Source: an uncultured Acidobacteriota bacterium
GTDB taxonomy: Bacteria; Acidobacteriota; Polarisedimenticolia; J045
NCBI GenBank assembly: GCA_963702425.1
Contig: CAVPCQ010000017.1
Span: 64,001 to 128,000 of the forward strand
DNA length: 64,000 bases
Direction of reading: 5' to 3'
Numbering within the stretch: the first letter of the stretch is position 1; the number at the start of each line of letters is the position of its first letter. Made by a program: the position numbers and the translations under genes. Below the pieces are notes generated by a model. The model was not told the DNA's origin. It did no database searches and saw only the letters and a program-made list of their open reading frames with translations. Shown in pieces: positions 2,893 to 25,053 of the stretch.

Positions 2893-4865
2893 GGCTTGGC
2901 CCTCGTCTCCCGAACCACGACCACGCCTGCGTTGATCGAGGCGAGGGGGTCGCGAAGCGACAGCACCGCATCGCGCTTAGCGAGAGGGAGTACTGCCATC
3001 GCCAGCGTGAAGCTGCGAGAGACAACGAGCCGCCCGTCGGCGAAGGACACGTCCTGGGACACGCTGCCCACGTCGTTCGCGGCTTTGATTGCGCCGGGGT
3101 CGGACCATCCCGCAGCCGGCGGCAGCTCGATCTCGATCGTCTGACTCACGGTGCGCGGCAAGCCGGCGTAAGCCGAGCCTTCCGGCCCAGCGAGAGGCAC
3201 GGGCACGGAGCCCAAGTCCACGAATTCCCCCAGCGGCAGTGCGAGGAAGGAGCCGAATCGCCCCCACGGATTCGGACAGCGATACCCGTACGTGAATCGC
3301 CAGCGCAACTCGTCGACCGGCAGCACGTCGGTGACCTCGAGATTCTCGAAGGCGGGGCAGCGCTCCGCCGCACTCTCCAGCACCCACTCGCGCAGGTCGC
3401 GACCGCGAGCTGGCCGCCCCTCCTCATCGACGAATCTCGCGCGCAGGCTGCCTCCCATCGCAACCGCGACGGAGACCTCGAACCCCGCATCGGCGCGTCG
3501 CCAGGTCTCGTGCACGTCAGCGCGGTTGCGGTCAGGGCTGGGGGGCGGAACGCGGAGCAGCCCCGTGGTGCGGGGATCCATCGCCAGTCCGGCCGCCCCA
3601 TCCAGCGCGGGCGACAGGTCGAACGCTGAGTCCGGCTCCAGCGTCGCGTCGAACAGCCGGAGGCGACCGATCCCGGGGGCCTCGACGAGCGCCATCCCCG
3701 GGGCGGCGTCGCCCTTCCAGACGATGCCGACGATGGCGTGGTTGAACGCCTGGAAGGTCGGAAGATCCGGTGCGACGAAACCGTCTCGAGGGCTGATGAT
3801 CGCAATCGGAACCGCCTCGAGACCACGGGCGCGCAGCAACGCGAGCATGAGCGCGGTCTTGTCCTTGCAGTCCCCGAATCCGCGACTCAGTGTCGTCTCC
3901 GTCGGACGGGGCACCCACCCACCCCACCCGATACTGACGGCAAAGTACCGGATGGATCGCGCGATCCGCCCCGCGGCGCCGATCGTCGCGACCTGGTCGG
4001 TCGGAAGCTCCTTGACCAGCCGATCGATGCTGGCGTTCCTCTCCATCGCGGGCCGGGCGAGTGTCGCGAGCCAGCCGGCAACTCCCCCCCACGTCGAAAA
4101 GCGGGGCTCGCCGTTCTCCGGGATGGGCTCCAGGGTCATCGCGAGCCGCGGCGGAGCGGGGACCCACCCGCCGCTCGAGGCGGCACGCTGCGCGCGCACG
4201 TCGACGAAGCGCCATGTTCCGCCCGCGCTCTCGCCGGCCGGTCCAGGATTGCGTCCCTCCCCCACGGTCGATAGCACGCGCCATCCACGATGCGTCTCGA
4301 CGTCGACCTGGAATACGTCGACCGGCCAGGGTCCTTGCACGCGCAGGAGGTCCTGCGGCCAGTCCGACGCACTTTCGTAGCGGTACTGAACGGCGAAGAC
4401 CGTACCGGGCACGGCATCAGGGGGCGCAAGAGAAAGTAGCTCCGTATCGTCGAGTTCCATGACGTTGCCGAGGGACCGGAGGGTGCCATCCTCCTCGTCG
4501 AACGTCTCGACCCGACCCGACGGGCGCATGACCCAGCCCTTTACCTTGCTGTAGCGGACGAATGACGAGCGGTGGAGATCGACGCGTGCGGCGTCCTCCC
4601 CGTCGCGCGTGAGCACCTTGACCGCGAACCGGCGCACGCAGGTGCGCCCGCCATCGGAGACCACTTCACATCGGTGGTGATCGAGAAGAACGACGGCATC
4701 ATCTGTGGCGTGATGCGCTGCGCCTGCGGCGTCGAATTGCAGCGGGACCCAGTCCGGCATGGTTGCGGCGCGAGCGGACAGGCCAAGTACTTCCAGCAGA
4801 ACAGCCAGCGTGAGGAAGCTTGCCAGCCTTGCGGCGGACGATGGACTACCCACTCCGCGATCCAT
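2889..4865 (-). CDS. DUF3857 and transglutaminase-domain exported protein
   Basis: Signal peptide; IRYFAV, GFGDCKDKT, FNHAIV, FDAT (Cys-His-Asp triad). Confidence 0.85.
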   Translation of the reverse strand: MDRGVGSPSSAARLASFLTLAVLLEVLGLSARAATMPDWVPLQFDAAGAAHHATDDAVVLLDHHRCEVVSDGGRTCVRRFAVKVLTRDGEDAARVDLHRSSFVRYSKVKGWVMRPSGRVETFDEEDGTLRSLGNVMELDDTELLSLAPPDAVPGTVFAVQYRYESASDWPQDLLRVQGPWPVDVFQVDVETHRGWRVLSTVGEGRNPGPAGESAGGTWRFVDVRAQRAASSGGWVPAPPRLAMTLEPIPENGEPRFSTWGGVAGWLATLARPAMERNASIDRLVKELPTDQVATIGAAGRIARSIRYFAVSIGWGGWVPRPTETTLSRGFGDCKDKTALMLALLRARGLEAVPIAIISPRDGFVAPDLPTFQAFNHAIVGIVWKGDAAPGMALVEAPGIGRLRLFDATLEPDSAFDLSPALDGAAGLAMDPRTTGLLRVPPPSPDRNRADVHETWRRADAGFEVSVAVAMGGSLRARFVDEEGRPARGRDLREWVLESAAERCPAFENLEVTDVLPVDELRWRFTYGYRCPNPWGRFGSFLALPLGEFVDLGSVPVPLAGPEGSAYAGLPRTVSQTIEIELPPAAGWSDPGAIKAANDVGSVSQDVSFADGRLVVSRSFTLAMAVLPLAKRDAVLSLRDPLASINAGVVVVRETRAKP

Positions 4866-5029
4866 GGCAGGTTAACCATAGCACGGAAGCGGTCGTAAAG
4901 AGCCCTCTGACGAGTGACATGCCGGACATCGGGACTCCCCTACGGCCGCCTTTCGCTTCCAGCCGGCGAAAAGAACAGTCCACGCGCTCCCGCAAGCCCG
5001 CAGTGCTGGTACGCGTCATAGGCACGTGC

Positions 5030-5147
5030 CCCGTCACCCCCGACCCCGGGACCTGGCCCCACGCCTCCGGGTGACCGGCCTCCCGGCGCTCGGTCTCCCG
5101 ACCCCGGCGGCCGCTACCTCTCCTGGGCCGAGTTGCTGCGCCGAGTC
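5030..5147 (+). pseudogene. IS91/ISCR transposase fragment left of LSR insertion (5'-truncated)
   Basis: Encodes ...GRYLSWAELLRRV, homologous to 14860-14978; left boundary approximate. Confidence 0.75.
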
Positions 5148-5196
5148 TTGGACCGACCACCCGACTGCACCCGGTACCCGCGATGCGGTGCGTCGG

Positions 5197-5481
5197 ATGC
5201 GGATCACGCATCCGTTCCACCCGCTGCGGGGGCGGGAGTTCGTCGTGCTGGACGAGCGCCGCAACCGCCACGGCGAGCGGGTCTGGTACCGCGCTGAGGA
5301 CGGCTCGGCGCGGACGGTCCCGCGGGGCTGGACGAGCCTGGGGGAGGCCGATCTCTTCGCGACGATTTCGGCCGGGCGGGCCTGGTTTCGGTGGGACGAC
5401 CTGCGGCGGCTGGTGGCGTTGATCGGGGAGCTGCGGGAGGGGCTGGGCCCGGGGGACGCGGGGGGAGGGGGTGTCAAGTGA
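5197..5481 (+). CDS. DUF5372/Y4bD-like small protein (likely true start supplied by right end after circularisation)
   Basis: RITHPFHPLRGREF...ERVWY...TVPRGWTSL motif; no clear RBS before 5197. Confidence 0.7.
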   Translation: MRITHPFHPLRGREFVVLDERRNRHGERVWYRAEDGSARTVPRGWTSLGEADLFATISAGRAWFRWDDLRRLVALIGELREGLGPGDAGGGGVK

Positions 5482-5595
5482 ATTTCGTCCATATTGTCTG
5501 GAGTATTATGCTCGTAGCGGTCGGGGGCGCCACATCCGATCGGGCCTTGATCGGTCCAATACCGCGCATCAGAGCGATAACTGGCACAAGGCCCA

Positions 5596-5623
5596 TGGAC
5601 ACGGTCTTTGATGTGTGCATAAT
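5596..5623 (+). promoter_or_regulatory. Putative sigma70 promoter for HTH-recombinase operon
   Basis: TGGACA-16 bp-CATAAT in an AT-richer patch, AGGAGG RBS before ATG 5659; conserved in copy 2. Confidence 0.45.
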
Positions 5624-5658
5624 GGTCCTGACACACGGCGACGACCCAGGAGGAGACC

Positions 5659-6123
5659 ATGGCCGCACCGAGCGACGACTCCAAGCGCCGCGAGCTGGCC
5701 CGCCGCGGGGCCCTGCACCCCCACGCCGCGCAGGTCACGGACCCGCTCTTCGCGCGCGAGCCGTTCTTCGACCGCCGCGACGCGGTGCAGGTCAAGTACG
5801 AGATGCTGCGCAGCGTGCGAGCCGAGGGCCGTCCGGTGAGCCAGGCGGCGGCGCAGTTCGGCTTCTCGCGCCCGACCTTCTACGAGGCGCGAGCGGCCTT
5901 CGAGCGCGCCGGTCTGCCGGGTTTGCTGCCGGCGAAGAAAGGGCCGAAGCGCGCGCACAAGCTCTCGGCGGAGGTCCTGGCCTTCATCGACCGGCAGCTC
6001 GACGCCCGGCCGGCGCCGACCATGGAGGCACTCAGCGCGCGGATCCACGAGCACTTCGGCCGGTCGGTCCATCCCCGCAGCATCCGGCGCGCCCTGCTGC
6101 GCCGCACAAAAAAAAACCCGTAG
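5659..6123 (+). CDS. Helix-turn-helix protein of LSR element
   Basis: FFDRRDAVQVKYEMLR...VSQAAAQFGFSRPTFY...GLPGLLPAKKGPK; strong RBS. Confidence 0.85.
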   Translation: MAAPSDDSKRRELARRGALHPHAAQVTDPLFAREPFFDRRDAVQVKYEMLRSVRAEGRPVSQAAAQFGFSRPTFYEARAAFERAGLPGLLPAKKGPKRAHKLSAEVLAFIDRQLDARPAPTMEALSARIHEHFGRSVHPRSIRRALLRRTKKNP

Positions 6124-6410
6124 ACCCGCGCCCACCGACGTCCGGTCTCGCCGCGCACTACGAGCGGCTGCGGGAGGGTGTGCTCGGCGGCGACCGCCGG
6201 CCGTCGATCGGCGAGACGATCGTCCGTGGCCAGGGACTGTGGGCCTTCATCGCGCTCGCCGCGGCCGAGGCGCCGAGCGGCACGCCACCGCGCGTGGTCA
6301 CGGGATCGAGCGGCGCTCTGCCGGCACCGGCGGTGGCCGAGCGGGGCGCGCTGCTCGCGGCGTGGGCCGAGCTCGTCGTCGCCGTCGTGCAGCGCCCGGA
6401 GGTCTCATGA
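6108..6410 (+). CDS. Small ORF in the -1 frame after an A9 run, coupled (ATGA) to the recombinase
   Basis: KKKPVDPRPPTSGLAAHYERLR...PEVS*; no well-placed start codon; same in copy 2. Confidence 0.55.
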   Translation, partial: KKKPVDPRPPTSGLAAHYERLREGVLGGDRRPSIGETIVRGQGLWAFIALAAAEAPSGTPPRVVTGSSGALPAPAVAERGALLAAWAELVVAVVQRPEVS

Positions 6411-8500
6411 CCGAGGCCACGCCACAGAAGGTCGCCGCGACCCACCTGGCGCGCCAGGCCTTCCTCTACGTCCGCCAGTCGACGCTGCGCCAGGTGGTCG
6501 AGAATCCGGAGAGCACGCGCCGGCAGTACGCGCTGCGCGAGCGGGCCAGCGCGCTGGGCTGGCGGGCCGAGCAGATCGTCGTGATCGACTGCGATCTCGG
6601 TCGTTCGGGCGCGACGGCCGAGCGCGAGGGCTTCCAGCGGCTGGTCGCCGAGGTCGGGATGGGGCGGGCCGGGATCGTGCTCGGTCTCGAGGTTTCCCGC
6701 CTGGCCCGCAACTCCACCGACTGGCACCGCCTGCTCGAGATCTGCGCACTGACCGAGACGCTGATCCTCGACGAGGACGGCCTGTACGATCCGACGCAGT
6801 ACAACGACCGTTTGCTGCTCGGCTTGAAGGGCACGCTCTCGGAGGCCGAGCTGCACCTGCTGCGCGCGCGGATGCGCGGGGGTCTGCTGGCCAAGGCCCG
6901 CCGCGGCGAGCTGGGCCTCGGTCTGCCGGTCGGCCTGGTCTATGACGAGCTGGGGCGCGTCGTGCTGCATCCCGACGCGCAGGTGCGCGAGACCCTGGCG
7001 CTGTTCTTCCGCACCTTTCAGCGCACCGGGGCGGCTTGTGCGACGGTCAAGTATTTCTCGACGGAGCAGATCCCTTTCCCCGCGCCGACCCGCCCGGGGA
7101 GTCGCTCGGCGCAGGTCGTGTGGGGTCGGCTCAACCTCACGCGGGCCGTCAGCCTGCTGCACAACCCGCGCTACGCCGGGGCCTTCGCCTACGGCCGGCG
7201 CCGCGCGCGGCGGCAGCCCGACGGCCGCTTCCAGACCACGCGGGTACCGCGCGACCAATGGCTCGTGCTGCGCCTCGAGGCGCACCCGGGCTACATCGCG
7301 TGGGACGAGTTCGAGCGCAACCAGGAGCGGCTCGCGGCCTCGGCCCGGGCCTACGGGCTCGACCGCCGCGACGGCCCGCCGCGCGAAGGCCCGGCGCTGC
7401 TCCAGGGGCGCGTGCTCTGCGGCCGCTGCGGCGCGCGGATGACGGTCCGCTACCATCAGCGACGCGGCCAACTCGTGCCGGACTACGTCTGCTGTATCCG
7501 GACGCTGCAACACCGCGACCCGCCGTGCCAGGTCCTGCCCGGCGGCGCGGTCGACCGCGCGATCGGGCGTCTGATCGTCACGACGCTGACGCCCTTCGCC
7601 CTCGAGCTGACGCTCGCCGTCCAGGCCGAGCTCGAAACCCGCCTCGACGAGGCCGACCGGCTGCGCGGCCAGCAGATCGAACGCGCCCTGCACGAGGCCG
7701 AGCTGGCCCGCCGCCGCTACCTGCAGGTCGATCCGACGCATCGTCTCGTCGCCGCCTCGCTCGAGGCCGACTGGAATGACCGCCTGCGCGCGGTCGCCGA
7801 GACGCGCGAGCGCGTCGAGCACCAGCGCGACGCCGACCGCGGCGCTTTCGACGAGCAGACCCGGCAGCGGATCCGCGACCTCGCCGCCGACGTCCCGGCC
7901 GTCTGGGACGATCCCGCCACACCGCCGCGCGAGCGCAAGCGGATCCTCGGTCTGCTGCTCGCGGACGTCACGCTGGCCCGGCAGGACGACGAGATCACGC
8001 TCGCGGTCCGCTTCCGCGGCGGCGCGACGACGACGCTTCGCGTCCCGCTCCGGATCGGTCCCTGGCGCGGGCGGAAGACCCATCCCCAGGTCGTCGCACG
8101 GGCCGCGACGCTGCTCGCCTCCCACACCGCCGGCGAGGTCGCCGCGCGACTCAACGCGGAGGGCTTCACCTCCGGGGCCGGCCTCCCTTTCAAGCCGGAC
8201 ACCGTCGAATGGATGGGCCGGCACTACGGGCTGACCAGCCGACGCGACCACCTGCGTGCCGCCGGCCACCTCACCGCCGTCGAGCTCGCCGCACGGCTCC
8301 GCGTCAGCGTCGCCCGAGTCGGCTGCTGGCGTGCCGAGGGCCGGCTCACGGGGACGCGCTGCAACCAGAAAGACTGGCTCTACGACCCGATCGAGCGGCA
8401 GTCAGCGTGGATCCGGGAGCGTGCAGCGTGCGAAGATCGACGCCTCGACAGGCCGCGCGAGAACCGCACGATCACAGCGGCGACACGGGGTGCAGTATGA
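6407..8500 (+). CDS. Large serine recombinase (resolvase, recombinase, Zn-ribbon, coiled-coil and HTH regions)
   Basis: YVRQST catalytic motif, DLGRSG, SRLARN, LHNPRYAG, CGRCG..C..C; GGAGG RBS; stop lies within the attP arm. Confidence 0.93.
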   Translation: MTEATPQKVAATHLARQAFLYVRQSTLRQVVENPESTRRQYALRERASALGWRAEQIVVIDCDLGRSGATAEREGFQRLVAEVGMGRAGIVLGLEVSRLARNSTDWHRLLEICALTETLILDEDGLYDPTQYNDRLLLGLKGTLSEAELHLLRARMRGGLLAKARRGELGLGLPVGLVYDELGRVVLHPDAQVRETLALFFRTFQRTGAACATVKYFSTEQIPFPAPTRPGSRSAQVVWGRLNLTRAVSLLHNPRYAGAFAYGRRRARRQPDGRFQTTRVPRDQWLVLRLEAHPGYIAWDEFERNQERLAASARAYGLDRRDGPPREGPALLQGRVLCGRCGARMTVRYHQRRGQLVPDYVCCIRTLQHRDPPCQVLPGGAVDRAIGRLIVTTLTPFALELTLAVQAELETRLDEADRLRGQQIERALHEAELARRRYLQVDPTHRLVAASLEADWNDRLRAVAETRERVEHQRDADRGAFDEQTRQRIRDLAADVPAVWDDPATPPRERKRILGLLLADVTLARQDDEITLAVRFRGGATTTLRVPLRIGPWRGRKTHPQVVARAATLLASHTAGEVAARLNAEGFTSGAGLPFKPDTVEWMGRHYGLTSRRDHLRAAGHLTAVELAARLRVSVARVGCWRAEGRLTGTRCNQKDWLYDPIERQSAWIRERAACEDRRLDRPRENRTITAATRGAV

Positions 8501-8510
8501 ATGACGCTCC

Positions 8511-8699
8511 TTCGCTCTGGATGCCCTCCGCTGTCCGCGCTGCTCGTCCCGCATGAAGATCCTGGCCCAGATCCACCCGCCCGACACGACCCGCGCGATT
8601 CTCGACTGCCTCGGGCTGGCCTCTCGCGCCCCGCCCCGCGCGCCGGCCCGCGCCGAGCCCGACCCGCTCCCCTTTCCCGGCCTCGCCGCGGCGGACTGA
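8511..8699 (+). pseudogene. IS91/ISCR transposase C-terminal tail right of LSR insertion
   Basis: FALDALRCPRCSSRMKILAQIHPP...* continues RYLSWAELLRRV in frame once the element is removed. Confidence 0.85.
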
Positions 8700-8916
8700 A
8701 CTCCTGCACGAACGCCCCGGCCCACGCGGGTCCTGACCACCCGAAGGGCCGCACTCCGCCTCCACGGCGGCCCTCCGCGCGTCCCATGCGGGCCCGAGCG
8801 CCGCGACGCGCGGCGCCCGAACGCGGCCCGCCCCCGCGGCCTGCCGCTCCCCCATCCCGCAGGTCCGCGGCTAAGCGCTCCGCCTCAGAATCCGCGGCTT
8901 GAATCGCTTATCCTCT
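8700..8916 (+). repeat. IS91/ISCR 3' end module with oriIS-like terminus (copy 2)
   Basis: Ends CCGCCTCAGAATCCGCGGCTTGAATCGCTTATCCTCT. Confidence 0.75.
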
Positions 8917-9657
8917 CCGCTTTTCCGCCGGCTGCACCTCGCCAATGCACCGCGCGTGTGGCGGGAGCTGGCTGATCGCGCCGAACGCGAACAGTGGTCG
9001 TACCACGACTTCCTCAGCGCGCTCATCACCGGCGAGATTGCACACCGGCAGCAGACCCGCGTCCAACGCCTCGTCCGGCGTGCGCGCTTTCCGTATCTCA
9101 AGACGATCGACGACTTCGACTTCTCTCGGCAGACGGCGCTGCGCCCCAACCAACTGGGCTCATTTCTCTCGCCGGAGTTTGTTTCAGACGGCCGCTCCTT
9201 GGTCCTGCGCGGCAGGTCCGGCCGCGGCAAGACCCACCTGGCGATTGCAATCGCATACAAGGCAATCCAGAACGGCTTCGATGCGTACTTCGTGACCGCC
9301 GCCTCGCTGATCGACGATCTCTCCCGCGCCTCTGATGAGAAGCGGCTTGAGGCGGCTCTGCCGACCTACACGCACCCCGCTGTACTCGTCGTGGATGAAC
9401 TCGGCTACCTGACCTACTCCAACGACGCCGCCAATGTGCTGTACCACGTCGTCAACAACCGCTACCTGAAGCACCGCTCCATGATCTTCACGACGAACAA
9501 GCCCCTCGACGCATGGGGCGCCGTACTCCACGACAACGACCTCGCCACCGCGATCCTCGACCGGGTCCTCGAGCGGGGCCGGGCCCTCGTCCTGGACGGT
9601 CCATCTCACCGGACCATGCACCTCGGCCTTGACGACCCGACGGCCCCTGTGGCATAA
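8917..9657 (+). pseudogene. istB: IS21 helper ATPase, 5'-clipped by the oriIS end
   Basis: RARFPYLKTIDDFDF, GRSGRGKT Walker A, LVVDELGY, AILDRVL; no istA upstream. Confidence 0.85.
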
Positions 9658-9711
9658 AACGAACCGGCAGGACTTACTGGAAATAACCGGCAAGAGTTTC
9701 CGGAACCCACA
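9658..9711 (+). mobile_element. IS21 right end with subterminal repeats
   Basis: AACCGGCA repeated, ends ...TTTCCGGAACCCACA. Confidence 0.65.
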
Positions 9712-9945
9712 CTCGTCTCACCGGCGAGCGACCCGGGCACCCAGAGCGATCGCTGCTCGTCTCGCTCACCTCGCTCCGGGTACATGATTGCGCGTCGGCG
9801 TAGACGCCGTCCGCGACGAGTTTGACGCCGCCCTCGCGCCGCACACAGCGTCCGGGAGCATGAGTGACGTCTACTGGTCCTGCTGTTGAGCCTTGATGAA
9901 GGGCGGTCTCGAAACGAGACTCAATCCGCCCAGGGAGAGTCGTTC

Positions 9946-11052
9946 ATGCGTCGTGTTGCATGTGTCGCCGCTGCCGTTGTCTGCTGCCTCTTCTCATTCG
10001 CCCCGGCCAGGGCGGATAGGACGGTCTTCTTCGCGGACTGCCAGGTTGCTACGCCGGTGGATTCCGGTATCACGTCCGACACCATCAGCAGCAACGGCTA
10101 CATCTTCACCTACACGCGCGACAAGTTGTTCACGGGCGGGACAGGGCAGCCGATCGGCCGCGCGGTCCGCGTGCCGTGGCCGGACGGCGTCGAAGCGCAG
10201 GCCGTGACGACGCCACCGCCGGGCGTGTTCGACTACAAGGCACGAATCACGCTCCAGCGGGTCGATGGGGGACTGTTCGACCTGCCGGCATTCACGGCCA
10301 AGCTGCTCGGCAACACGGCAGCGACCGGCGCGGCGATCGAGATCATGCCGCTCCTGAACGGAGAGGACGCTTTCGCCGATCCTCTGTACTTTGACGCTTC
10401 TGGGTACTATGGCCAGGACTTCTCTTACGACACGTCACCGAACCCGATGGGCAGTACCGCTCTGCTGGTCGGGTTCGACACGTACAAGATCAACCTGTTC
10501 GTTGATTTCGCACTGGTGGCTCTCACCCTCGACAGCACCGCGCCGGCCGAACAGTCCTGTTGCCTGGCCGGCCTCTCGTGCGCGGAGCTGAAAGCGGAGG
10601 CTTGCCTGCTGCAGGGAGGAACGCCGCTGGGCGCCGGAACGAGTTGTTCCTGCAACCCCTGCCTGGCGCCCACCGGTCCGCCTCCGGCCCCCGACGGCCG
10701 CGGCGCCACCGCGCCGCTGCGCGCCGCGAACCTGGCGACGACGGGTGACTCGATGCAGGTGACCTGGGACGCGTCTTCGTGCCCGGCAACCGACTACAAC
10801 CTGGTCCACGGGGACCTGGCCCAGGTCGCCGGCTACTCGCTGGGCGGCGCCGTGTGCTCGATCGGAACGACCGGCAGTTTCGACTGGATCGGTGTGCCGG
10901 CGGGGAACCTCTACTTCCTGGTCGTCGGCACCGACGGCGCGGGAACGGAGAGCAGCTGGGGTCTCGATTCAGCGAATCAGGAGCGCAACGGGCCCGTTCC
11001 GTCGGGCGCGTGCGGGGTGACGGTCAAGGACGTCTCCGCAACCTGTCCCTGA
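9946..11052 (+). CDS. Secreted protein with Cys-rich linker and conserved C-terminal domain
   Basis: Signal peptide ending APARA; C-terminal YFLVV...ESSWGLDS...CP. Confidence 0.8.
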   Translation: MRRVACVAAAVVCCLFSFAPARADRTVFFADCQVATPVDSGITSDTISSNGYIFTYTRDKLFTGGTGQPIGRAVRVPWPDGVEAQAVTTPPPGVFDYKARITLQRVDGGLFDLPAFTAKLLGNTAATGAAIEIMPLLNGEDAFADPLYFDASGYYGQDFSYDTSPNPMGSTALLVGFDTYKINLFVDFALVALTLDSTAPAEQSCCLAGLSCAELKAEACLLQGGTPLGAGTSCSCNPCLAPTGPPPAPDGRGATAPLRAANLATTGDSMQVTWDASSCPATDYNLVHGDLAQVAGYSLGGAVCSIGTTGSFDWIGVPAGNLYFLVVGTDGAGTESSWGLDSANQERNGPVPSGACGVTVKDVSATCP

Positions 11053-11179
11053 TGCAGCGGCCGGTACCTTCAGGCGGCGACCAGGTCGGACGCGCCGATC
11101 GTGTTGGTCCAGGTCGCCGTTTTCCGTCCCCCGCAGTCGGTCCCGGACGCTTCCGGACGCGGCGCTCATGCGCCCCGCC

Positions 11180-12265
11180 TCAGTACCGATCGTCGTCTCC
11201 TGTCGGCGCCATCGGCAGCACGGGCCAGGTGGTTGCGTTGATCGTGGTGCCGCCGTGCGAGAAGGCCCCGGCACCCCGCACGAAGTCCGCCGGGAAGTTG
11301 AGCGCCGGCGCCGAGACCTCGTCCAGCGCGGCCCGCTGCTCCGGAGCCAGCACCAGGTCCAGCGCCGCGAGGTTCTCGTCGAGCTGGGCCAGCGTCCGCG
11401 CGCCGAGGATGGTCGACGCCACGCCCGGGCGTCCCTGCACCCACGCCAGCGCGACCTGCGCCGGGGTCGCCCCGAGCTCCGCGGCGACGCGTGTCACGAC
11501 GTCGAGCACCGAGAAGGCCCGCTCGTCGAGCGACGACACGACCCAGTCGCCGCGCCCCGGCGTCGCCTTCTGGACGCTCTCGCGCGTGTGCTTGCCGGTC
11601 AGCACGCCGTAGCGCAGCGGCGACCAGGGCGTCACGCCGAGCCCCAGCTCGAGCGCCATCGGGACCAGTTCCCCTTCGATCGTCCGCTCCAGCAGCGAGT
11701 ACTCGACCTGCAGCGCGATCACCGGCGACCACGAGCGGAAGTGCGCCGTGACCTGGGCCTGGGCGACCTTCCAGGCCGGCGTGTCGGAGAAGCCGACGTA
11801 GCGCACCTTGCCCGCCGCCACCAGGTCGTCGAGCACGCGCATCGTCTCCTCGATCGGGGTGATCGGGTCCCAGCAGTGCATCCAGTAGAGGTCGATGTAG
11901 TCGGTGTGGAGGCGCCGCAGCGAGTCCTCGCACGCGGCGACGATCGCCTTGCGGCTCGTGCCGCCGGCGTTCGGGTCGCCCGGGAAGAGGCTGGAGAAGA
12001 ACTTGGTCGCCAGGACGACGCGCCGGCGCTTGCCGGGGTGGCGCCCGAGGTGCTCGCCGAGGATCGCCTCGGAGTGACCCTTGGTGTAGAAGTTCGCGGT
12101 GTCGATGAAGTTGCCGCCCGCGTCGAGGTAACGGTCGATGATCGCCTTGGATTCGGTGGCGCTGGCGCCCCAGCCCCAGTCCTCGCCGAAGGTCATCGCA
12201 CCCAGGCAGAACGGGCTGACGGCGAGACCGGAGCGCCCGAGGGTCACGTAGTGGTTCAGCGGCAT
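11180..12265 (-). CDS. Aldo/keto reductase
   Basis: LGRSGL.VS.FCLGAMTFG, FIDTANFY, LATK, DYIDLY, GKVRYVGFS. Confidence 0.95.
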   Translation of the reverse strand: MPLNHYVTLGRSGLAVSPFCLGAMTFGEDWGWGASATESKAIIDRYLDAGGNFIDTANFYTKGHSEAILGEHLGRHPGKRRRVVLATKFFSSLFPGDPNAGGTSRKAIVAACEDSLRRLHTDYIDLYWMHCWDPITPIEETMRVLDDLVAAGKVRYVGFSDTPAWKVAQAQVTAHFRSWSPVIALQVEYSLLERTIEGELVPMALELGLGVTPWSPLRYGVLTGKHTRESVQKATPGRGDWVVSSLDERAFSVLDVVTRVAAELGATPAQVALAWVQGRPGVASTILGARTLAQLDENLAALDLVLAPEQRAALDEVSAPALNFPADFVRGAGAFSHGGTTINATTWPVLPMAPTGDDDRY

Positions 12266-14978: not shown

Positions 14979-15027
14979 TTGGACCGACCACCCGACTGCA
15001 CCCGGTACCCGCGATGCGGTGCGTCGG

Positions 15028-15312
15028 ATGCGGATCACGCATCCGTTCCACCCGCTGCGGGGGCGGGAGTTCGTCGTGCTGGACGAGCGCCGCAACCGCC
15101 ACGGCGAGCGGGTCTGGTACCGCGCTGAGGACGGCTCGGCGCGGACGGTCCCGCGGGGCTGGACGAGCCTGGGGGAGGCCGATCTCTTCGCGACGATTTC
15201 GGCCGGGCGGGCCTGGTTTCGGTGGGACGACCTGCGGCGGCTGGTGGCGTTGATCGGGGAGCTGCGGGAGGGGCTGGGCCCGGGGGACGCGGGGGGAGGG
15301 GGTGTCAAGTGA
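15028..15312 (+). CDS. DUF5372/Y4bD-like protein, copy 2
   Basis: Same as 5197-5481. Confidence 0.7.
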   Translation: MRITHPFHPLRGREFVVLDERRNRHGERVWYRAEDGSARTVPRGWTSLGEADLFATISAGRAWFRWDDLRRLVALIGELREGLGPGDAGGGGVK

Positions 15313-15488
15313 ATTTCGTCCATATTGTCTGGAGTATTATGCTCGTAGCGGTCGGGGGCGCCGCAGCCGATCGGGCCTTGATCAGCCGAATGCCGCGCAT
15401 CAGAGCGATAATGGCACAAGGCCCATGGACACGGTCTTTGATGTGTGCATAATGGTCCTGACACACGGCGACGACCCAGGAGGAGACC

Positions 15489-15953
15489 ATGGCCGCACCG
15501 AGCGACGACTCCAAGCGCCGCGAGCTGGCCCGCCGCGGGGCGCTGCACCCCCACGCCGCGCAGGTCACGGACCCGCTCTTCGCGCGCGAGCCGTTCTTCG
15601 ACCGCCGCGACGCGGTGCAGGTCAAGTACGAGATGCTGCGCAGCGTGCGGGCCGAGGGCCGTCCGGTGAGCCAGGCGGCGGCGCAGTTCGGCTTCTCGCG
15701 CCCGACCTTCTACGAGGCGCGAGCGGCCTTCGAGCGCGCCGGTCTGCCGGGTTTGCTGCCGGCGAAGAAAGGGCCGAAGCGCGCGCACAAGCTCTCGGCG
15801 GAGGTCCTGGCCTTCATCGACCGGCAGCTCGACGCCCGGCCGGCGCCGACCATGGAGGCACTCAGCGCGCGGATCCACGAGCACTTCGGCCGGTCGGTCC
15901 ATCCCCGCAGCATCCGGCGCGCCCTGCTGCGCCGCACAAAAAAAAACCCGTAG
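15489..15953 (+). CDS. HTH protein, copy 2
   Basis: Identical protein to 5659-6123; A9 run at 15938-15946. Confidence 0.85.
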   Translation: MAAPSDDSKRRELARRGALHPHAAQVTDPLFAREPFFDRRDAVQVKYEMLRSVRAEGRPVSQAAAQFGFSRPTFYEARAAFERAGLPGLLPAKKGPKRAHKLSAEVLAFIDRQLDARPAPTMEALSARIHEHFGRSVHPRSIRRALLRRTKKNP

Positions 15954-18370
15954 ACCCGCGCCCACCGACGTCCGGTCTCGCCGCGCACTACGAGCGGCTG
16001 CGGGAGGGTGTGCTCGGCGGCGACCGCCGGCCGTCGATCGGCGAGACGATCGTCCGTGGCCAGGGACTGTGGGCCTTCATCGCGCTCGCCGCGGCCGAGG
16101 CGCCGAGCGGCACGCCACCGCGCGTGGTCACGGGATCGAGCGGCGCTCTGCCGGCACCGGCGGTGGCCGAGCGGGGCGCGCTGCTCGCGGCGTGGGCCGA
16201 GCTCGTCGTCGCCGTCGTGCAGCGCCCGGAGGTCTCATGACCGAGGCCACGCCACAGAAGGTCGCCGCGACCCACCTGGCGCGCCAGGCCTTCCTCTACG
16301 TCCGCCAGTCGACGCTGCGCCAGGTGGTCGAGAATCCGGAGAGCACGCGCCGGCAGTACGCGCTGCGCGAGCGGGCCAGCGCGCTGGGCTGGCGGGCCGA
16401 GCAGATCGTCGTGATCGACTGCGATCTCGGTCGTTCGGGCGCGACGGCCGAGCGCGAGGGCTTCCAGCGGCTGGTCGCCGAGGTCGGGATGGGGCGGGCC
16501 GGGATCGTGCTCGGTCTCGAGGTTTCCCGCCTGGCCCGCAACTCCACCGACTGGCACCGCCTGCTCGAGATCTGCGCGCTGACCGAGACGCTGATCCTCG
16601 ACGAGGACGGCCTGTACGATCCGACGCAGTACAACGACCGTTTGCTGCTCGGCTTGAAGGGCACGCTCTCGGAGGCCGAGCTGCACCTGCTGCGCGCGCG
16701 GATGCGCGGGGGTCTGCTGGCCAAGGCCCGCCGCGGCGAGCTGGGCCTCGGTCTGCCGGTCGGCCTGGTCTATGACGAGCTGGGGCGCGTCGTGCTGCAT
16801 CCCGACGCGCAGGTGCGCGAGACCCTGGCGCTGTTCTTCCGCACCTTTCAGCGCACCGGGGCGGCTTGTGCGACGGTCAAGTATTTCTCGACGGAGCAGA
16901 TCCCTTTCCCCGCGCCGACCCGCCCGGGGAGTCGCTCGGCGCAGGTCGTGTGGGGTCGGCTCAACCTCACGCGGGCCGTCAGCCTGCTGCACAACCCGCG
17001 CTACGCCGGGGCCTTCGCCTACGGCCGGCGCCGCGCGCGGCGGCAGCCCGACGGCCGCTTCCAGACCACGCGGGTACCGCGCGACCAATGGCTCGTGCTG
17101 CGCCTCGAGGCGCACCCGGGCTACATCGCGTGGGACGAGTTCGAGCGCAACCAGGAGCGGCTCGCGGCCTCGGCCCGGGCCTACGGGCTCGACCGCCGCG
17201 ACGGTCCGCCGCGCGAAGGCCCGGCGCTGCTCCAGGGGCGCGTGCTCTGCGGCCGCTGCGGCGCGCGGATGACGGTCCGCTACCATCAGCGACGCGGCCA
17301 ACTCGTGCCGGACTACGTCTGCTGTCTCCGGACGCTGCAACACCGCGACCCGCCGTGCCAGGTCCTGCCCGGCGGCGCGGTCGACCGCGCGATCGGGCGT
17401 CTGATCGTCACGACGCTGACGCCCTTCGCCCTCGAGCTGACGCTCGCCGTCCAGGCCGAGCTCGAAACCCGCCTCGACGAGGCCGACCGGCTGCGCGGCC
17501 AGCAGATCGAGCGCGCCCTGCACGAGGCCGAGCTGGCCCGCCGCCGCTACCTGCAGGTCGATCCGACGCATCGTCTCGTCGCCGCCTCGCTCGAGGCCGA
17601 CTGGAATGACCGCCTGCGCGCGGTCGCCGAGACGCGCGAGCGCGTCGAGCACCAGCGCGACGCCGACCGCGGCGCTTTCGACGAGCAGACCCGGCAGCGG
17701 ATCCGCGACCTCGCCGCCGACGTCCCGGCCGTCTGGGACGATCCCGCCACACCGCCGCGCGAGCGCAAGCGGATCCTCGGTCTGCTGCTCGCGGACGTCA
17801 CGCTGGCCCGGCAGGACGACGAGATCACGCTCGCGGTCCGCTTCCGCGGCGGCGCCACGACGACGCTTCGCGTCCCGCTCCGGATCGGTCCCTGGCGCGG
17901 GCGCAAGACCCATCCCCAGGTCGTCGCACGGGCCGCGACGCTGCTCGCCTCCCACACCGCCGGCGAGGTCGCCGCGCGACTCAACGCGGAGGGCTTCACC
18001 TCCGGGGCCGGCCTCCCTTTCAAGCCGGACACCGTCGAATGGATGGGCCGGCACTACGTGGCAGTTCCGGCGATCGTGATCACCCGATCCGGGATCGTGA
18101 TCACTGATTCCGCTGATGGTGATCACGCGTCGGAGCGAAGCGACGGTCGGTTCGTTCTAGTTTCGCCTCCTGTCAAGCCTCGGCAGATTCTAACGCGGGA
18201 TCCCGATCGGTTGAAGGCTGGGTGGCAGCAGGGCCTGTGGGGCCTGTGGGCGGCGCGGCCGTTCGCGCCGTCCAAGGGGCGGTGGGAAACGCGACGTCAT
18301 GCGTTTTCCACGGACCCGCCAGGATCCATAGGCCGTCGCGCGTCAGCGCGAGTTCGGAGCGCAGCGACGA

Positions 18371-19126
18371 TCATCGGGTCTTGTCTCCGCCACGGATCGG
18401 ACTGCGGAGCTCGCGTTGCGAGGGCCCTTTGAGATCGATCTTGTGCGCGCGGTGGACCAGGCGATCCAGGATGGCGTCTGCGAGCATCGCTTCGCCGATC
18501 ACCTCGTGCCAGGCTTTGATCGGGAGCTGACCGGCCAGGAGTGTCGAGCCACGCTCGGCGCGGTCCTCGATCACCTCGAGCAGGTCGCGGCGCCCGGCGT
18601 CCTGGAGCGGCGAGAGCAGCCAGTCGTCGATCACCAGCAGATCGAGCTTGGCCAGTCGGGCCAGCAGGCGGCCGGACGAGCCGTCGCCGCGGGCGACGGC
18701 CAGGGCCTGGATCAGGCGCGGGGCGCGGACGTACTGGGCGGTGAAGCCCTTGCGGCAGGCGCGTTCGCCGAAGGCGCAGGCCAGGTAGGACTTTCCCGAT
18801 CCGGTCGGGCCGGTGATGATCAGGTTGTGCCGCTCGGTGATCCAGGTGCAGGTGCCGAGCGCGAGCAGCACCTGGCGATCCAGGCCGCGCCCGGGCTTGA
18901 CCTCGACGTCCTCGAGTGCGGCGTCGTAGCGCAGCCGCGCCAGCTTGAGCCGCCGCGTCAGCTTGCGCTGCTCGCGCTGGGTCCACTCGTGGTCGACCAG
19001 CAGACCGAAGCGCTCTTCGAAGCTGAGCGCGACGTGTGTGGTGTCGTGTTGCTGCCGGTCGAAGGCCTCGGCCATGCCGTGCAGGTTCATCGCCTGGAGC
19101 TTGTCGATCGTGGGTTGGGTCAGCAT
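18371..19126 (-). CDS. istB: IS21 helper ATPase
   Basis: MLTQPTIDKL..., GPTGSGKS, LLVIDDW, ADAILDRLVH. Confidence 0.93.
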   Translation of the reverse strand: MLTQPTIDKLQAMNLHGMAEAFDRQQHDTTHVALSFEERFGLLVDHEWTQREQRKLTRRLKLARLRYDAALEDVEVKPGRGLDRQVLLALGTCTWITERHNLIITGPTGSGKSYLACAFGERACRKGFTAQYVRAPRLIQALAVARGDGSSGRLLARLAKLDLLVIDDWLLSPLQDAGRRDLLEVIEDRAERGSTLLAGQLPIKAWHEVIGEAMLADAILDRLVHRAHKIDLKGPSQRELRSPIRGGDKTR

Positions 19127-20685
19127 TCGGTCTCCTGGGACACGTAGTAGTCCGCGCCACGGATGTTGGGATGGCCTTGCGGGGGGGGCGACAGAGCCAA
19201 CGGCTCGTCCGCGATCGGGACACGGTCGAGACCGGCTTGCAGGATGTTGTGCACGGTCTTGAAGCTCACGGCGGCGAGGCGTTCGGCCCGCGCACAGGCC
19301 GCCTCGAGACGGCCGTCGCCGTGCTTCTTGCCGAGACGCATCAGACCCAGACAGGCCCGATAGCCCTGCTCGGGGTGGGGCCTCGAGCGCAGGATCTGCT
19401 CGACCACGCGCCCCGTGGCCGGGCCGCTCTTCTCGGCCCAGTGGATCAGCCGCGAGGGCGTCCACTCGGCGTGGGCACGATGCGACGCGGGCATGTGCTC
19501 GGGGTAGGTCGAGCTCTGGCCGCGGCCCCGCAACCGCCGGTGCGACGTGATCCGGCGGCCGTTGTGGAAGACTTCGACGACGTCGGCGGTGAGGCGGGCG
19601 TCGACCTGCTCGTACAGCAGCGTGTACGGCACGCTGTAGGTGTTGTATTCGATCGCGATGTGGTAGTCGATGCTGACCCGGCAGGTCTTCCACTGGCCCA
19701 GCTCGTAGCGCCGCGGTGGCAGCGGCTTGAGTGCGGGCCGGTCGAGCTGCTCGAACAGCTCGCGGCGGCTGACACCCAGGGCGCGGATCCGCCGCTCGTT
19801 GAGGTGTCCGGTCAACTCCCGAATCGCCGCGTTCAGCTCGTGCAGGCTGAAGAAGATGCGATGCCGCAGCACCGCCAGGATCCAGCGCTCCGCCAGCAGC
19901 ACCCCCGCTTCGACCTTGGCCTTGTCCTTCGGCCGATAGCTCCGTGCTGGGATCACCGCGGTCCCGTAATGCGCCGCCATCTCGCCGTAGCTGCGGTTGA
20001 CCTCCGGCTCGTAACGACACGGCTTCGTCACCCCGCTCTTCAAGTTGTCGGGGACCAGCATCTCCGGGGCTCCGCCCCAGGCCTCAAACATGTGGACGTG
20101 TGCCCGGATCCACGGCTCCAGCTCCTGCGATTCCACCGCCTCGGCGTAGGTCTCACTGCTCGCCCCCAGCACCCCGACGAACAACTCCACTTCGCGCACG
20201 GCGCCCGTCGCGGGGTCAACGAGCCGCGGCTTGCTCCCGGCGAAGTCGACGAAGGCCTTCTCACCCGCCCGATGGACCTGCCGCATGCTCGGCTTGAGCC
20301 GCGCAGCGAAGCGTCGATACAACTCGCAGAACTGGCTGTAGCGATAGTGATTCACCGGGTGCGCCGCGGCGTACTCGCCCCACAGCAGCTGCAGCGTCAC
20401 GTGCTTGCGCCGCAGCTCCTGATGCACCCAGCTCCAGTCGGGGGGCAGCCGCTCGACCTCCACGCCCGGGGCCGGCGGGAACAGCCGCACCGTCAACGCC
20501 GCGTCGTCCAACTCCTCCGGCAGCGGCCAGGACAGACCGGCCGCCTGGGCGCGCTGGACGTAGGCGCAGACCGTACCCGTGCCGATCCCTGCCGACCGCG
20601 CGATCTCACGGTGCGTCAGCCGGCACTCCCATTTCAGTCGCAGGATCTCGCGCAACTTCCTCATCAGCAGCCTCTCGCCAGCCAT
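19120..20685 (-). CDS. istA: IS21 DDE transposase
   Basis: MRKLREILRL, YSQFCELY, GEKAFVDFAG, VPDNLKSGV, PKDKAKVE, HPNIRGADYY. Confidence 0.95.
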   Translation of the reverse strand: MAGERLLMRKLREILRLKWECRLTHREIARSAGIGTGTVCAYVQRAQAAGLSWPLPEELDDAALTVRLFPPAPGVEVERLPPDWSWVHQELRRKHVTLQLLWGEYAAAHPVNHYRYSQFCELYRRFAARLKPSMRQVHRAGEKAFVDFAGSKPRLVDPATGAVREVELFVGVLGASSETYAEAVESQELEPWIRAHVHMFEAWGGAPEMLVPDNLKSGVTKPCRYEPEVNRSYGEMAAHYGTAVIPARSYRPKDKAKVEAGVLLAERWILAVLRHRIFFSLHELNAAIRELTGHLNERRIRALGVSRRELFEQLDRPALKPLPPRRYELGQWKTCRVSIDYHIAIEYNTYSVPYTLLYEQVDARLTADVVEVFHNGRRITSHRRLRGRGQSSTYPEHMPASHRAHAEWTPSRLIHWAEKSGPATGRVVEQILRSRPHPEQGYRACLGLMRLGKKHGDGRLEAACARAERLAAVSFKTVHNILQAGLDRVPIADEPLALSPPPQGHPNIRGADYYVSQETEC

Positions 20686-20738
20686 CGGCCCCTCCGCAAA
20701 AGGGCCAGATTGACCGCGTTCGCTGCCGACGCCTACCA

Positions 20739-20894
20739 GTGATCACGATGCCCGGAATCCCTGATCACGATCCCGGAATCCCTGATCAGGATCCCGGAAT
20801 CCGCGATCACGATCCCCGGAACCGGTGATCACGATCCCGGAATCCCTGATCACGATGCCCCGGAATGAGCGATCACGATGGTCCGGAACCGCCA
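20739..20894. repeat. About seven tandem 21-23-bp subterminal repeats of IS21
   Basis: Unit (c/g)TGATCACGAT(g/c)CCGGAATCC, no spacers. Confidence 0.9.
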
Positions 20895-21182
20895 ACTACG
20901 GGCTGACCAGCCGACGCGACCACCTGCGTGCCGCCGGCCACCTCACCGCCGTCGAGCTCGCCGCACGGCTCCGCGTCAGCGTCGCCCGAGTCGGCTGCTG
21001 GCGTGCCGAGGGCCGGCTCACGGGGACGCGCTGCAACCAGAAAGACTGGCTCTACGACCCGATCGAGCGGCAGTCAGCGTGGATCCGGGAGCGTGCAGCG
21101 TGCGAAGATCGACGCCTCGACAGGCCGCGCGAGAACCGCACGATCACAGCGGCGACACGGGGTGCAGTATGAATGACGCTCC

Positions 21183-24157: not shown

Positions 24158-24349
24158 TCAGTCGCTGGACCAGTCGGGGTCGGGCTCGAACAGCGCCGCC
24201 GTAGTCCGCCGCGGCGGAGCCACGGGCGGCGGCCGGGCCGACAGCCCGAGGCACTCCAGGATCGCTCCGGCCGTGTCGGGCGGATGAATCGCGGCAAGGA
24301 TTCTCATCGGTCCGTGGCACCGCGGGCACTCCAGGACATCCACGGCGAA
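24158..24349 (-). pseudogene. Divergent IS91/ISCR transposase C-terminal tail
   Basis: FAVDVLECPRCHGPMRILAAIHPPDTAGAILECLGLSARPPP. Confidence 0.85.
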
Positions 24350-24830
24350 GGAGCGTCATTCATACTGCACCCCGTGTCGCCGCTGTGATCGTGCGGTTCT
24401 CGCGCGGCCTGTCGAGGCGTCGATCTTCGCACGCTGCACGCTCCCGGATCCACGCTGACTGCCGCTCGATCGGGTCGTAGAGCCAGTCTTTCTGGTTGCA
24501 GCGCGTCCCCGTGAGCCGGCCCTCGGCACGCCAGCAGCCGACTCGGGCGACGCTGACGCGGAGCCGTGCGGCGAGCTCGACGGCGGTGAGGTGGCCGGCG
24601 GCACGCAGGTGGTCGCGTCGGCTGGTCAGCCCGTAGTGCCGGCCCATCCATTCGACGGTGTCCGGCTTGAAAGGGAGGCCGGCCCCGGAGGTGAAGCCCT
24701 CCGCGTTGAGTCGCGCGGCGACCTCGCCGGCGGTGTGGGAGGCGAGCAGCGTCGCGGCCCGTGCGACGACCTGGGGATGAGTCTTCCGCCCGCGCCAGGG
24801 ACCGATCCGGAGCGGCACGCGAAGCGTCGT
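24348..24830 (-). mobile_element. LSR element copy 3, inverted, only recombinase 3' end and attR left
   Basis: Reverse complement of ~8030-8512; attR ...ATGAATGACGCTCC-TT-CGCCGTGGATG. Confidence 0.9.
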
Positions 24831-25053
24831 ACGCCGCCGCGGACTGAGCTCATCGACGAACGCCCGGGCCCTCGCGGGTCGTGCCAAGCCGGAGGGCGGG
24901 ACTCCGCCTCCGCGGCCGACCTCCGCGCATCCCTTTCGGCCACTTCGCCGCGACGCGCAGCGCCCGACCACGGCCGGCCCCCGCGACCCCTTCCCCGGCA
25001 GGCCCGCGGCTACGCTCTCCGCCTCAGAATCCGGCTTGAATCGCTTATCCTCT
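24831..25053 (+). repeat. IS91/ISCR 3' end module (copy 4)
   Basis: Near-identical to 21355-21577 (one substitution noticed). Confidence 0.85.

Follow-up and report, generated by a model that had tools for sequence, protein, structure and literature searches.

Genes that are altered by integration and expression that depends on circularisation are both already known from mobile DNA. In IS3-, IS30- and IS110-type elements, the -35 and -10 halves of a promoter (Pjunc) are brought together at the circle junction, and the circle joint of Tn4451 assembles the tnpX promoter in the same manner. The SSV1-type archaeal integrases and Mx8 intP are tyrosine recombinases with attP placed within int, so that the gene divided is the integrase's own. 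Phages of the BPs type reportedly have a tyrosine integrase and exchange the 3' end of the repressor gene, giving either a stable or a degradable repressor. In the excerpted account of integration-dependent immunity in mycobacteriophage BPs, attP is located inside a protein-coding gene and the recombination state serves as a genetic switch (PMC4557955). The recombination directionality factors (RDFs) of large serine recombinases (LSRs) include phiC31 gp3, SPbeta SprB and Bxb1 gp47, as given in excerpts of three reports (PMC5814800, PMC11722253, PMC12286644), one of which places the binding of known RDFs on the second DNA-binding domain (DBD2) of the LSR, near the coiled-coil junction (PMC12286644). 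Here we analyse an insertion sequence (IS)-like element of an uncultured Acidobacteriota bacterium in which attP appears to split the gene for a protein with the domain DUF5372. The element lies in a window of 64,000 nucleotides, which is contig C17:64001-128000 of a 5.1-Mb, 42-contig genome. Coordinates prefixed with C17 or C19 refer to whole contigs and all others to the window, and features lie on the forward strand unless stated otherwise.

The element occupies 5150-8510 and is one intact copy, with 3361 bp (~3.36 kb) between its crossover cores. It contains four co-oriented open reading frames (ORFs) in the order DUF5372, a helix-turn-helix (HTH) protein, orfX and an LSR. We think that attP very probably splits the DUF5372 gene, so that integration would remove the start of the gene and the full gene would be rebuilt only in the excised circle. 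The ends of the element are exact. BLAST against the same genome located two empty sites (C17:2333-2379 and C19:4711-4757), and in each case the left-flank match and the right-flank match share just the two bases TT (C17:2357-2358 and C19:4735-4736). Because the flanks overlap by TT at both empty sites, the element is bounded by one TT core at attL (5148-5149) and another at attR (8511-8512). The 2-bp overlap is the crossover signature of a serine recombinase, and the insertion is conservative, with a 2-bp crossover and no target duplication beyond the shared core. The two arms of attP form an imperfect inverted repeat, in which GGTGCA at core -22 (8489-8494) mirrors TGCACC at core +18 (5166-5171). 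The element is IS-like in being short, with defined ends, several copies at different sites and mobility-related genes only. It does not have the terminal inverted repeats and target-site duplication of the DDE-transposase type, and its mobility is that of a serine recombinase.

At the right end, the LSR ORF closes with GTA TGA (TGA at 8498-8500), and an ATG at 8497-8499 overlaps this stop as ATGA. A Shine-Dalgarno (SD)-like GGGGTG (8487-8492) stands 4 nt upstream of the ATG, which is followed by 11 nt and then by the TT at 8511-8512. When the right end is joined to the left end at TT, ATG 8497 is in frame with the DUF5372 body, whose first codon begins at 5149, and the core spans codons 5 and 6 of the joined ORF. 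Read from the sequence, the P arm of attP (8487-8510, the inner half of attR) carries the SD-like motif, GGTGCA, the ATG and codons 2-5, and the P' arm (5150-5171, the inner half of attL) carries codons 6-13. The attP core thus falls inside a coding sequence, and integration changes the gene product. The initial annotation had described both the stop/ATG overlap and the in-frame join with its peptide, and we find them exactly as written. It had also reported the arrangement for a second copy; the in-frame join is identical there (copy 2, 14981-21182), in the window element and in a third copy (copy 0, C17:48231-51590).

The body of the DUF5372 gene, from codon 6 to the stop, lies at 5149-5481 and contains two candidate internal starts, GTG 5188 and ATG 5197, with weak SD pairing. 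Its identity rests on Pfam and on an AlphaFold 2 (AF2) model. PF17342 (DUF5372), whose gathering cut-off is 25 bits, matches ORF 5026-5481 with 79.9 bits and the product read from 5197 with 81 bits, and the domain (5203-5433) begins 2 residues past Met-5197. The only sigma70-like promoter between 4900 and 8800, recognised by consensus match only, is TGGACA, 16 nt, CATAAT at 5596-5623, ahead of the HTH-orfX-LSR operon (1 found against 0.1 expected from shuffles). It is downstream of the DUF5372 stop, which bears out the earlier statement that the DUF5372 ORF of the integrated element lies upstream of the promoter.

These features suggest a mechanism. The attP site would lie within the 5' end of DUF5372, with the SD, the start and codons 2-5 at the right end (8487-8511) and codon 6 onward at the left end (5149-5481); integration at such a site would therefore strip the gene of its translation start. 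In the integrated state the promoter at 5596-5623 would drive HTH, orfX and LSR, and the DUF5372 body would be left upstream of it, devoid of SD and start. Excision as a circle would rebuild DUF5372 directly downstream of the LSR gene. A transcript from 5596-5623 could then cross HTH, orfX, LSR and attP into DUF5372, and ribosomes would start at 8497. We infer that circles form and that the joined ORF is translated. The DUF5372 protein would in that case be a read-out of the excised state, present only when the circle exists.

A more distant relative in the same genome has the same layout. Element B, delimited by genome comparison, has its left end at C17:61572, upstream of the window, and its right end at 1-319. 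It sits in the same target as the window element (element A), 26 bp downstream of element A's site. Its LSR gene shares ~65% nucleotide identity with the window LSR, and its DUF5372 scores 25.3-25.4 bits with PF17342. At its right end the LSR-B stop (277-279) is followed by GAGGTGA (289-295), six nt, an ATG (302-304) and a shared CCCGC (315-319). The joined ends are in frame, VTH comes after 23 codons, and the left end has no canonical in-frame start. Element B consists of DUF5372 and LSR only, with neither HTH nor orfX, and its longer DUF5372-like ORF runs up to the LSR start. Since element B holds only DUF5372 and LSR, this pair is the core module. A second copy of element B, at ~C17:36062-41360, is interrupted by ~2.5 kb.

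The in-frame join and its fixed geometry recur in many lineages. PF17342 is present in 16 of 401 sampled genomes of the same phylum. Genome G279 holds eight near-identical 3349-bp copies, whose ends are fixed because their flanks differ, plus three copies of a second family, and genome G353 holds three copies. With ends defined by copy comparison, every element of both G279 families and of G353 joins in frame, its ATG or GTG preceded by a strong SD; the right boundary in G332 was set from the register only. We then scanned one genome per species, which yielded at least 512 tblastn-confirmed relatives, and examined the best-scoring 80 loci. These span Pseudomonadota, Acidobacteriota, Chloroflexota, Actinomycetota, Myxococcota, Planctomycetota, Gemmatimonadota and others, and at 73 of the 80 loci DUF5372 has an LSR match beside it, the start of which is typically ~1.2 kb downstream. 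Ends were paired by a rule that is blind to frame, namely a GGTGCA-like motif at core -22 near the LSR stop, a TGCAC-like motif at +18 upstream of the domain and equal core dinucleotides. This fixed-geometry rule replaced an unconstrained arm-symmetry search over all right/left pairs, which gave best scores of ~14-16/26 nearly everywhere and inconsistent pairings.

Under the pairing rule 41 loci are scorable; 30 have no intact LSR 3' end in the locus and 9 have no motif pair. The join is in phase 0 at 40 of the 41, with a leader of exactly 23 codons in 39 and 22 codons in one. All 41 have a start at the fixed position (ATG in 29, GTG in 12), and the core dinucleotide is TT in 38, TC in two and CC in one, the mis-paired L109. 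The shared geometry is an SD, ATG or GTG, 11 nt, the core, 18 codons and then (V/I)THPF. The single out-of-phase locus under the strict rule is L109, whose right end has been replaced. Under relaxed rules three more loci are in frame (L123, L128 and L130) and L140 is ambiguous. No out-of-frame locus with a well-defined attP occurs among the 80 loci examined. A random frame among homologs had been set beforehand as the test that would speak against the idea, and the frame is far from random. By sequence comparison, the in-frame layout across attP is conserved and not a product of chance.

Several observations weigh against a gene divided in this way. A circle junction, its transcript and the joined peptide have none of them been seen. 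No RNA run was among the sequencing runs listed as carrying the sequence. Logan contigs from four DNA metagenome runs contain the empty-site joint (5143 to 8511 in X5) and no circle joint among the 15 joints listed, an absence that says nothing on circles because contigs drop rare forms. The homologous loci are phylogenetically related and not independent, and six loci with an LSR end (L096, L104, L105, L109, L131 and L133) have damaged or divergent ends. For the second G279 family the arm-symmetry script ranked an out-of-frame pairing first, and the in-frame join comes from copy comparison. The ATGA overlap of stop and start is not conserved either: among homologs the LSR stop can fall as far as 8 nt beyond the DUF5372 start or as much as 62 nt ahead of it. 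The translational coupling that the initial annotation had proposed is therefore a local detail, and the conserved unit is the SD, the start, 11 nt and the core. The remaining points concern the leader peptide and the internal starts, and each of them bears on a different explanation of the locus.

The leader amino acids are not conserved, and the homolog leaders show no third-position periodicity. DNA-level constraint contributes to the conservation of SD and leader, as part of the SD (GGTG) and part of the leader overlap the recombinase-binding arms. The open frame across attP could then be a by-product of constraint on an att site of ~50 bp together with high G+C content, with no junction protein made and with DUF5372 decaying or otherwise regulated. 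Long ORFs do arise by chance in high-G+C genomes, and in the integrated state the same frame stays open for 120 nt into the flank. We nevertheless regard this explanation as very improbable, as low-G+C elements such as L081 keep the same open frame. Among 33 unique joined leaders, which form 17 clusters at 70% nucleotide identity, frame 0 contains a stop codon in 0 of 33, and frames 1 and 2 contain stops in 29 and 28 of 33, respectively. Shuffled leaders (2000) have a stop in a mean of 20.3 of 33, with a minimum of 9. The leader DNA of codons 15-23, beyond the att arms, is nearly unconstrained and yet never gains a stop or a non-triplet indel; the leader length is fixed and changes only by one whole codon. 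The DUF5372 domain itself has a clear coding periodicity (0.90/0.78/1.54 bits), which argues against decay. Selection on the leader is visible only as an open frame and a fixed length, since the peptide is not conserved and lacks periodicity, and in view of the missing third-position signal we do not claim purifying selection on the leader peptide.

The internal starts lead to another explanation, in which the integrated element expresses DUF5372 in the usual way, with translation beginning at ATG 5197 or GTG 5188, and the ATG and SD at the right end are merely recombinase-binding DNA that is in frame by chance. The window element does have an in-frame ATG 5197, two codons before the Pfam domain; a GTG, TTG or ATG occupies this internal position in 12 of the 40 in-frame homologs, and gene callers annotate database proteins of close relatives from such starts (P0001-P0013). 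We consider this improbable, because a canonical in-frame start in the left end is absent from the other 28 of the 40 loci, from element B and from both G279 families, and GTG 5188 is lost in copy 0. The calculated SD duplex energy at the right-end start is -6.3 kcal/mol in the window and has a median of -7.1 kcal/mol across the 33 unique homologs. Two codons ahead of the domain, the median is -3.1 kcal/mol in sequences with a start codon there (12 of 33) and -2.9 kcal/mol in those lacking one (21 of 33), so that an internal start brings no gain in pairing. ATG 5197 and GTG 5188 of the window element reach -3.0 kcal/mol, compared with -10.3 kcal/mol for the HTH start and -10.2 kcal/mol for the LSR start. 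The GGTGCA motif belongs to the symmetric attP arms and could be explained as binding DNA, but the right-end ATG or GTG has no symmetric counterpart in the P' arm and is nonetheless found in 41 of 41 scorable loci, ahead of a leader that is open in frame 0 in 33 of 33 and fixed in length.

The split of DUF5372 by attP is thus the reading that we retain. The initial annotation had proposed that only the excised circle makes the full protein; the conserved split and the 28 loci that lack an internal start support this, and for the window element it is qualified by ATG 5197, from which a short integrated-state isoform is possible, on weak sequence grounds. In a word-limited search of a 5.8-billion-protein collection for full-length, circle-derived DUF5372, the 13 matches examined out of 24 all start at or near the domain or in the flank, which does not speak against the existence of such proteins. 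The layout implies a correction to annotation, as DUF5372 proteins are called from internal or spurious starts and the conserved start lies ~3.3 kb away, at the other end of the element. One such record is L151 (NZ_CP141215.1, 263753-273986), from a plasmid of Sinorhizobium meliloti, where the annotation lists four unrelated genes and no mobile element and gives DUF5372 as a truncated protein of 68 residues. Its left junction is degenerate, and it was left out of the scoring. The family is found in 133 plasmid records, 59 of them from Sinorhizobium, and is common on rhizobial and Burkholderiaceae plasmids. Strains of Paraburkholderia, Caballeronia, Bradyrhizobium, Sorangium and Kibdelosporangium are among the genome and plasmid matches.

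One divergent relative, which we count in favour of the split, has an undivided gene. In genome G137 (L150, G137:C21:116000-128500, at 7483-11760) the LSR and a full-length DUF5372 are contiguous with 190 nt between them; this DUF5372 gene possesses a start of its own and, once more, a leader of 23 codons. Judging by its gene order, this may be an unsplit or attP-form arrangement carried within another island. The neighbours of the pair, which is in the chromosome, are an HTH_17 gene and a tyrosine integrase.

The enzyme of the window element is a protein of 697 residues (6407-8500, by Pfam). Its Pfam domains are Resolvase (18-168), Recombinase (195-310) and Zn_ribbon_recom (331-386). Homologs from many phyla share 49-56% identity with it, and R23-Q24-S25 is invariant in 31 sequences. 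The AF2 model places the zinc ribbon at 336-378, followed by long antiparallel coiled-coil helices at 379-440 and 446-480. By domain content and model, the protein has the catalytic serine, the first DNA-binding domain (DBD1) and the zinc-ribbon DBD2 with an inserted coiled coil that characterise LSRs. After DBD2 there is an extra C-terminal helical domain (residues 552-679, window ~8060-8440), which is conserved across the family.

DUF5372 itself is modelled by AF2 as a small SH3-like barrel with a C-terminal helix and a floppy leader (the body has a predicted local distance difference test score, pLDDT, of 80). A profile search of the PDB gave nothing meaningful for it (E >= 0.48), and Foldseek against the PDB gave only weak matches to KOW, SH3 and Tudor barrels (E >= 0.028), with no functional assignment. 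No mention of DUF5372 was found in the ~8.4 million papers of the literature searched, which lay outside subscription journals and supplements. We modelled LSR and DUF5372 together, using self-made alignments of 31 rows for LSR and 38 rows for DUF5372. Three runs gave an interaction prediction score from aligned errors (ipSAE) of 0.76, and the best of three controls scored 0.00. Of 80 solved complexes 58 attain the ipSAE mark, as do 2 of 110 mismatched pairs, counts that hold only roughly with alignments of our own. The runs agree in at least 76% of contacts, with a partner pLDDT of at least 69. The predicted interface involves residues 337-342, 393-413 and 479-541 of LSR, which are the zinc ribbon and both feet of the coiled-coil hairpin, and the invariant HPFHPL motif and C-terminal helix of DUF5372. 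The predicted site is therefore the DBD2/coiled-coil junction, the location reported for known RDFs. Partnership with the LSR would be the first candidate role for this domain of unknown function.

The initial annotation had put DUF5372 forward as a candidate directionality factor. The predicted interface at the DBD2/coiled-coil junction lends weight to this candidacy; the function of the protein, and the direction of its effect, are both inferred. The complex is a prediction from our own alignments, which counts against leaning on it heavily. In a classical role, DUF5372 would promote attL x attR recombination and block attP x attB; supplied by circles only, it would feed back positively, releasing other copies in a burst and locking the element in its excised form. 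In favour of this role, the site predicted for binding is the one used by known RDFs, many genomes hold multiple copies that would be open to a factor acting in trans, and the weak internal start in a minority of elements could supply a first trickle of protein. A circle that co-expresses the LSR and a blocker of integration would nevertheless be self-defeating where no replication gene is recognised on it. Element B, moreover, carries no other accessory gene and no internal start, so that its first excision could not depend on DUF5372. We judge a classical RDF to be unlikely, although it is a more serious contender than the two explanations in which the gene is not split.

A circle-only factor is hard to reconcile with an RDF that promotes excision, and this difficulty bears on any assignment of function, the direction of the effect being a guess. 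As a classical RDF supplied by the circle alone would keep that circle from integrating, we favour the inverse role, if tentatively: DUF5372 may bind the LSR at the DBD2/coiled-coil junction and switch the enzyme to integration in the circle, as an inverse or anti directionality factor. It would either set the LSR to integration mode or displace an excision factor, and the state of the DNA would set the state of the cofactor. More speculatively still, the family might be a widespread, undescribed group of serine-recombinase elements that home to conserved motifs in other transposase genes and wire a cofactor to their DNA state, with LSR alone when integrated and LSR plus DUF5372 in the circle, in a self-resetting toggle of excision followed by insertion. 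If true, such a compact two-protein toggle would be a new tool principle for serine-integrase genome engineering.

The two genes between the promoter and the LSR may be expressed as a fusion. The HTH ORF (5659-6123, 154 residues) matches Pfam HTH_32, HTH_29 and HTH_28 and resembles the N-terminal HTH of IS630 and IS481 transposases. A run of nine A residues near its end (A9, 6108-6116, read from the sequence) is a candidate site for -1 frameshifting or transcriptional slippage into orfX. The latter, identified by ORF reading at 6117-6410, has ~95 codons in the -1 frame relative to the HTH ORF, and its stop overlaps the LSR start as ATGA; it has no Pfam or NCBIfam match. Among 35 unique homologs, 33 have an A8-A9 run that precedes the LSR start by ~300-490 nt, one has A7 and one has none. 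By its position and conservation, the run looks like a programmed -1 frameshift or slippage site that yields an HTH-orfX fusion, as is known for the transposases of IS1 and IS3.

BLAST against the genome gives three copies of the element plus fragments, with 98% identity for copy 0, upstream of the window, and 99% for copy 2. Copy 2 has the same ends as the window element (copy 1), and its LSR gene is interrupted by an IS21-family insertion at ~18059-20894, with IstA (rve and Mu-transpos_C_2) and IstB on the minus strand. An inverted fragment at 24317-24843, on the minus strand, is 97% identical to the 3' part of the element (query 2914-3444). Copies 0 and 1 differ at 81 positions, 59 of them in the left 600 bp with the DUF5372 gene and promoter region (window 5150-5700 against C17:48231-48780), and their LSR genes are almost identical. 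This mosaic pattern of differences suggests recombination between lineages. The changes in the leader (4 synonymous, 3 non-synonymous) are too few to use as a test of selection.

The target of the element is itself a transposase gene remnant. Identity of the flanks to the empty sites defines the left half of attB (5100-5147), the C-terminal coding end of an IS91/ISCR-like transposase remnant, and the right half with the rest of the remnant ORF (8513-8699), the latter also identified with NCBIfam. The empty-site fragment matches positions 434-506 of 509 in NCBIfam NF052416 (ISCR clade Ia transposase; E 4.8e-10), whereas a Pfam scan of the attB fragment gave no transposase match. Related elements (L080, L088, L093, L101, L143 and L145) likewise sit inside other transposase genes. 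Of ten flanking ORFs analysed, four stop at the junction in an rve core domain, two have the C-terminal domain of Mu transposase, one is an IS91 gene with Zn_Tnp_IS91 and Y2_Tnp, one has a sigma70_r4-like HTH only, and two are without a match. The target of L139 is the same IS91/ISCR-like C-terminal motif as that of the window element. Further IstB genes flank targets, in the window (8899-9657) and in L012.

The choice between excision and integration by serine-recombinase elements is a central question of mobile DNA, and for serine-integrase editing tools cognate directionality factors are scarce and hard to find. The family described here has at least 512 relatives across many phyla and appears to have an accessory gene that is switched by the recombination event itself, a clear and testable logic. 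A literature search outside subscription journals, supplements and ISfinder found no description of serine-recombinase IS-like elements with a split gene or a circle-dependent start. As in the BPs type, so far as the excerpted account of that system goes, the integrated and excised DNA states encode different products (PMC4557955). Unlike the BPs type, the enzyme is a serine recombinase and the vehicle an IS-like element. The 5' end of the gene is removed (SD, start and five codons), which would silence the gene instead of altering it. Its product has the recombinase as predicted binding partner, and there is no tyrosine integrase and no exchanged repressor 3' end. The dependence of a mobility function on circularisation is shared with Pjunc elements and Tn4451, the enzyme of Tn4451 also being an LSR, but in those systems it is transcription of the transposase that is controlled, and here a translation initiation region is joined to the coding body of an accessory factor. 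As in SSV1 and Mx8, integration divides or changes a coding sequence that excision makes whole again; in our element, by contrast, the recombinase gene is whole whether integrated or excised, and the split concerns its predicted partner alone. DUF5372 resembles known RDFs in being a small accessory protein of the same element with a predicted contact to DBD2 at the base of the coiled coil. It differs from phiC31 gp3, SprB and Bxb1 gp47 in having no relationship to them in sequence or fold and in having its gene split by attP, and its supply from the circle only would argue against the excision-promoting role of classical RDFs. What sets this element apart is the combination of a serine recombinase, the loss of a translation start and a split gene that encodes the recombinase's predicted partner.

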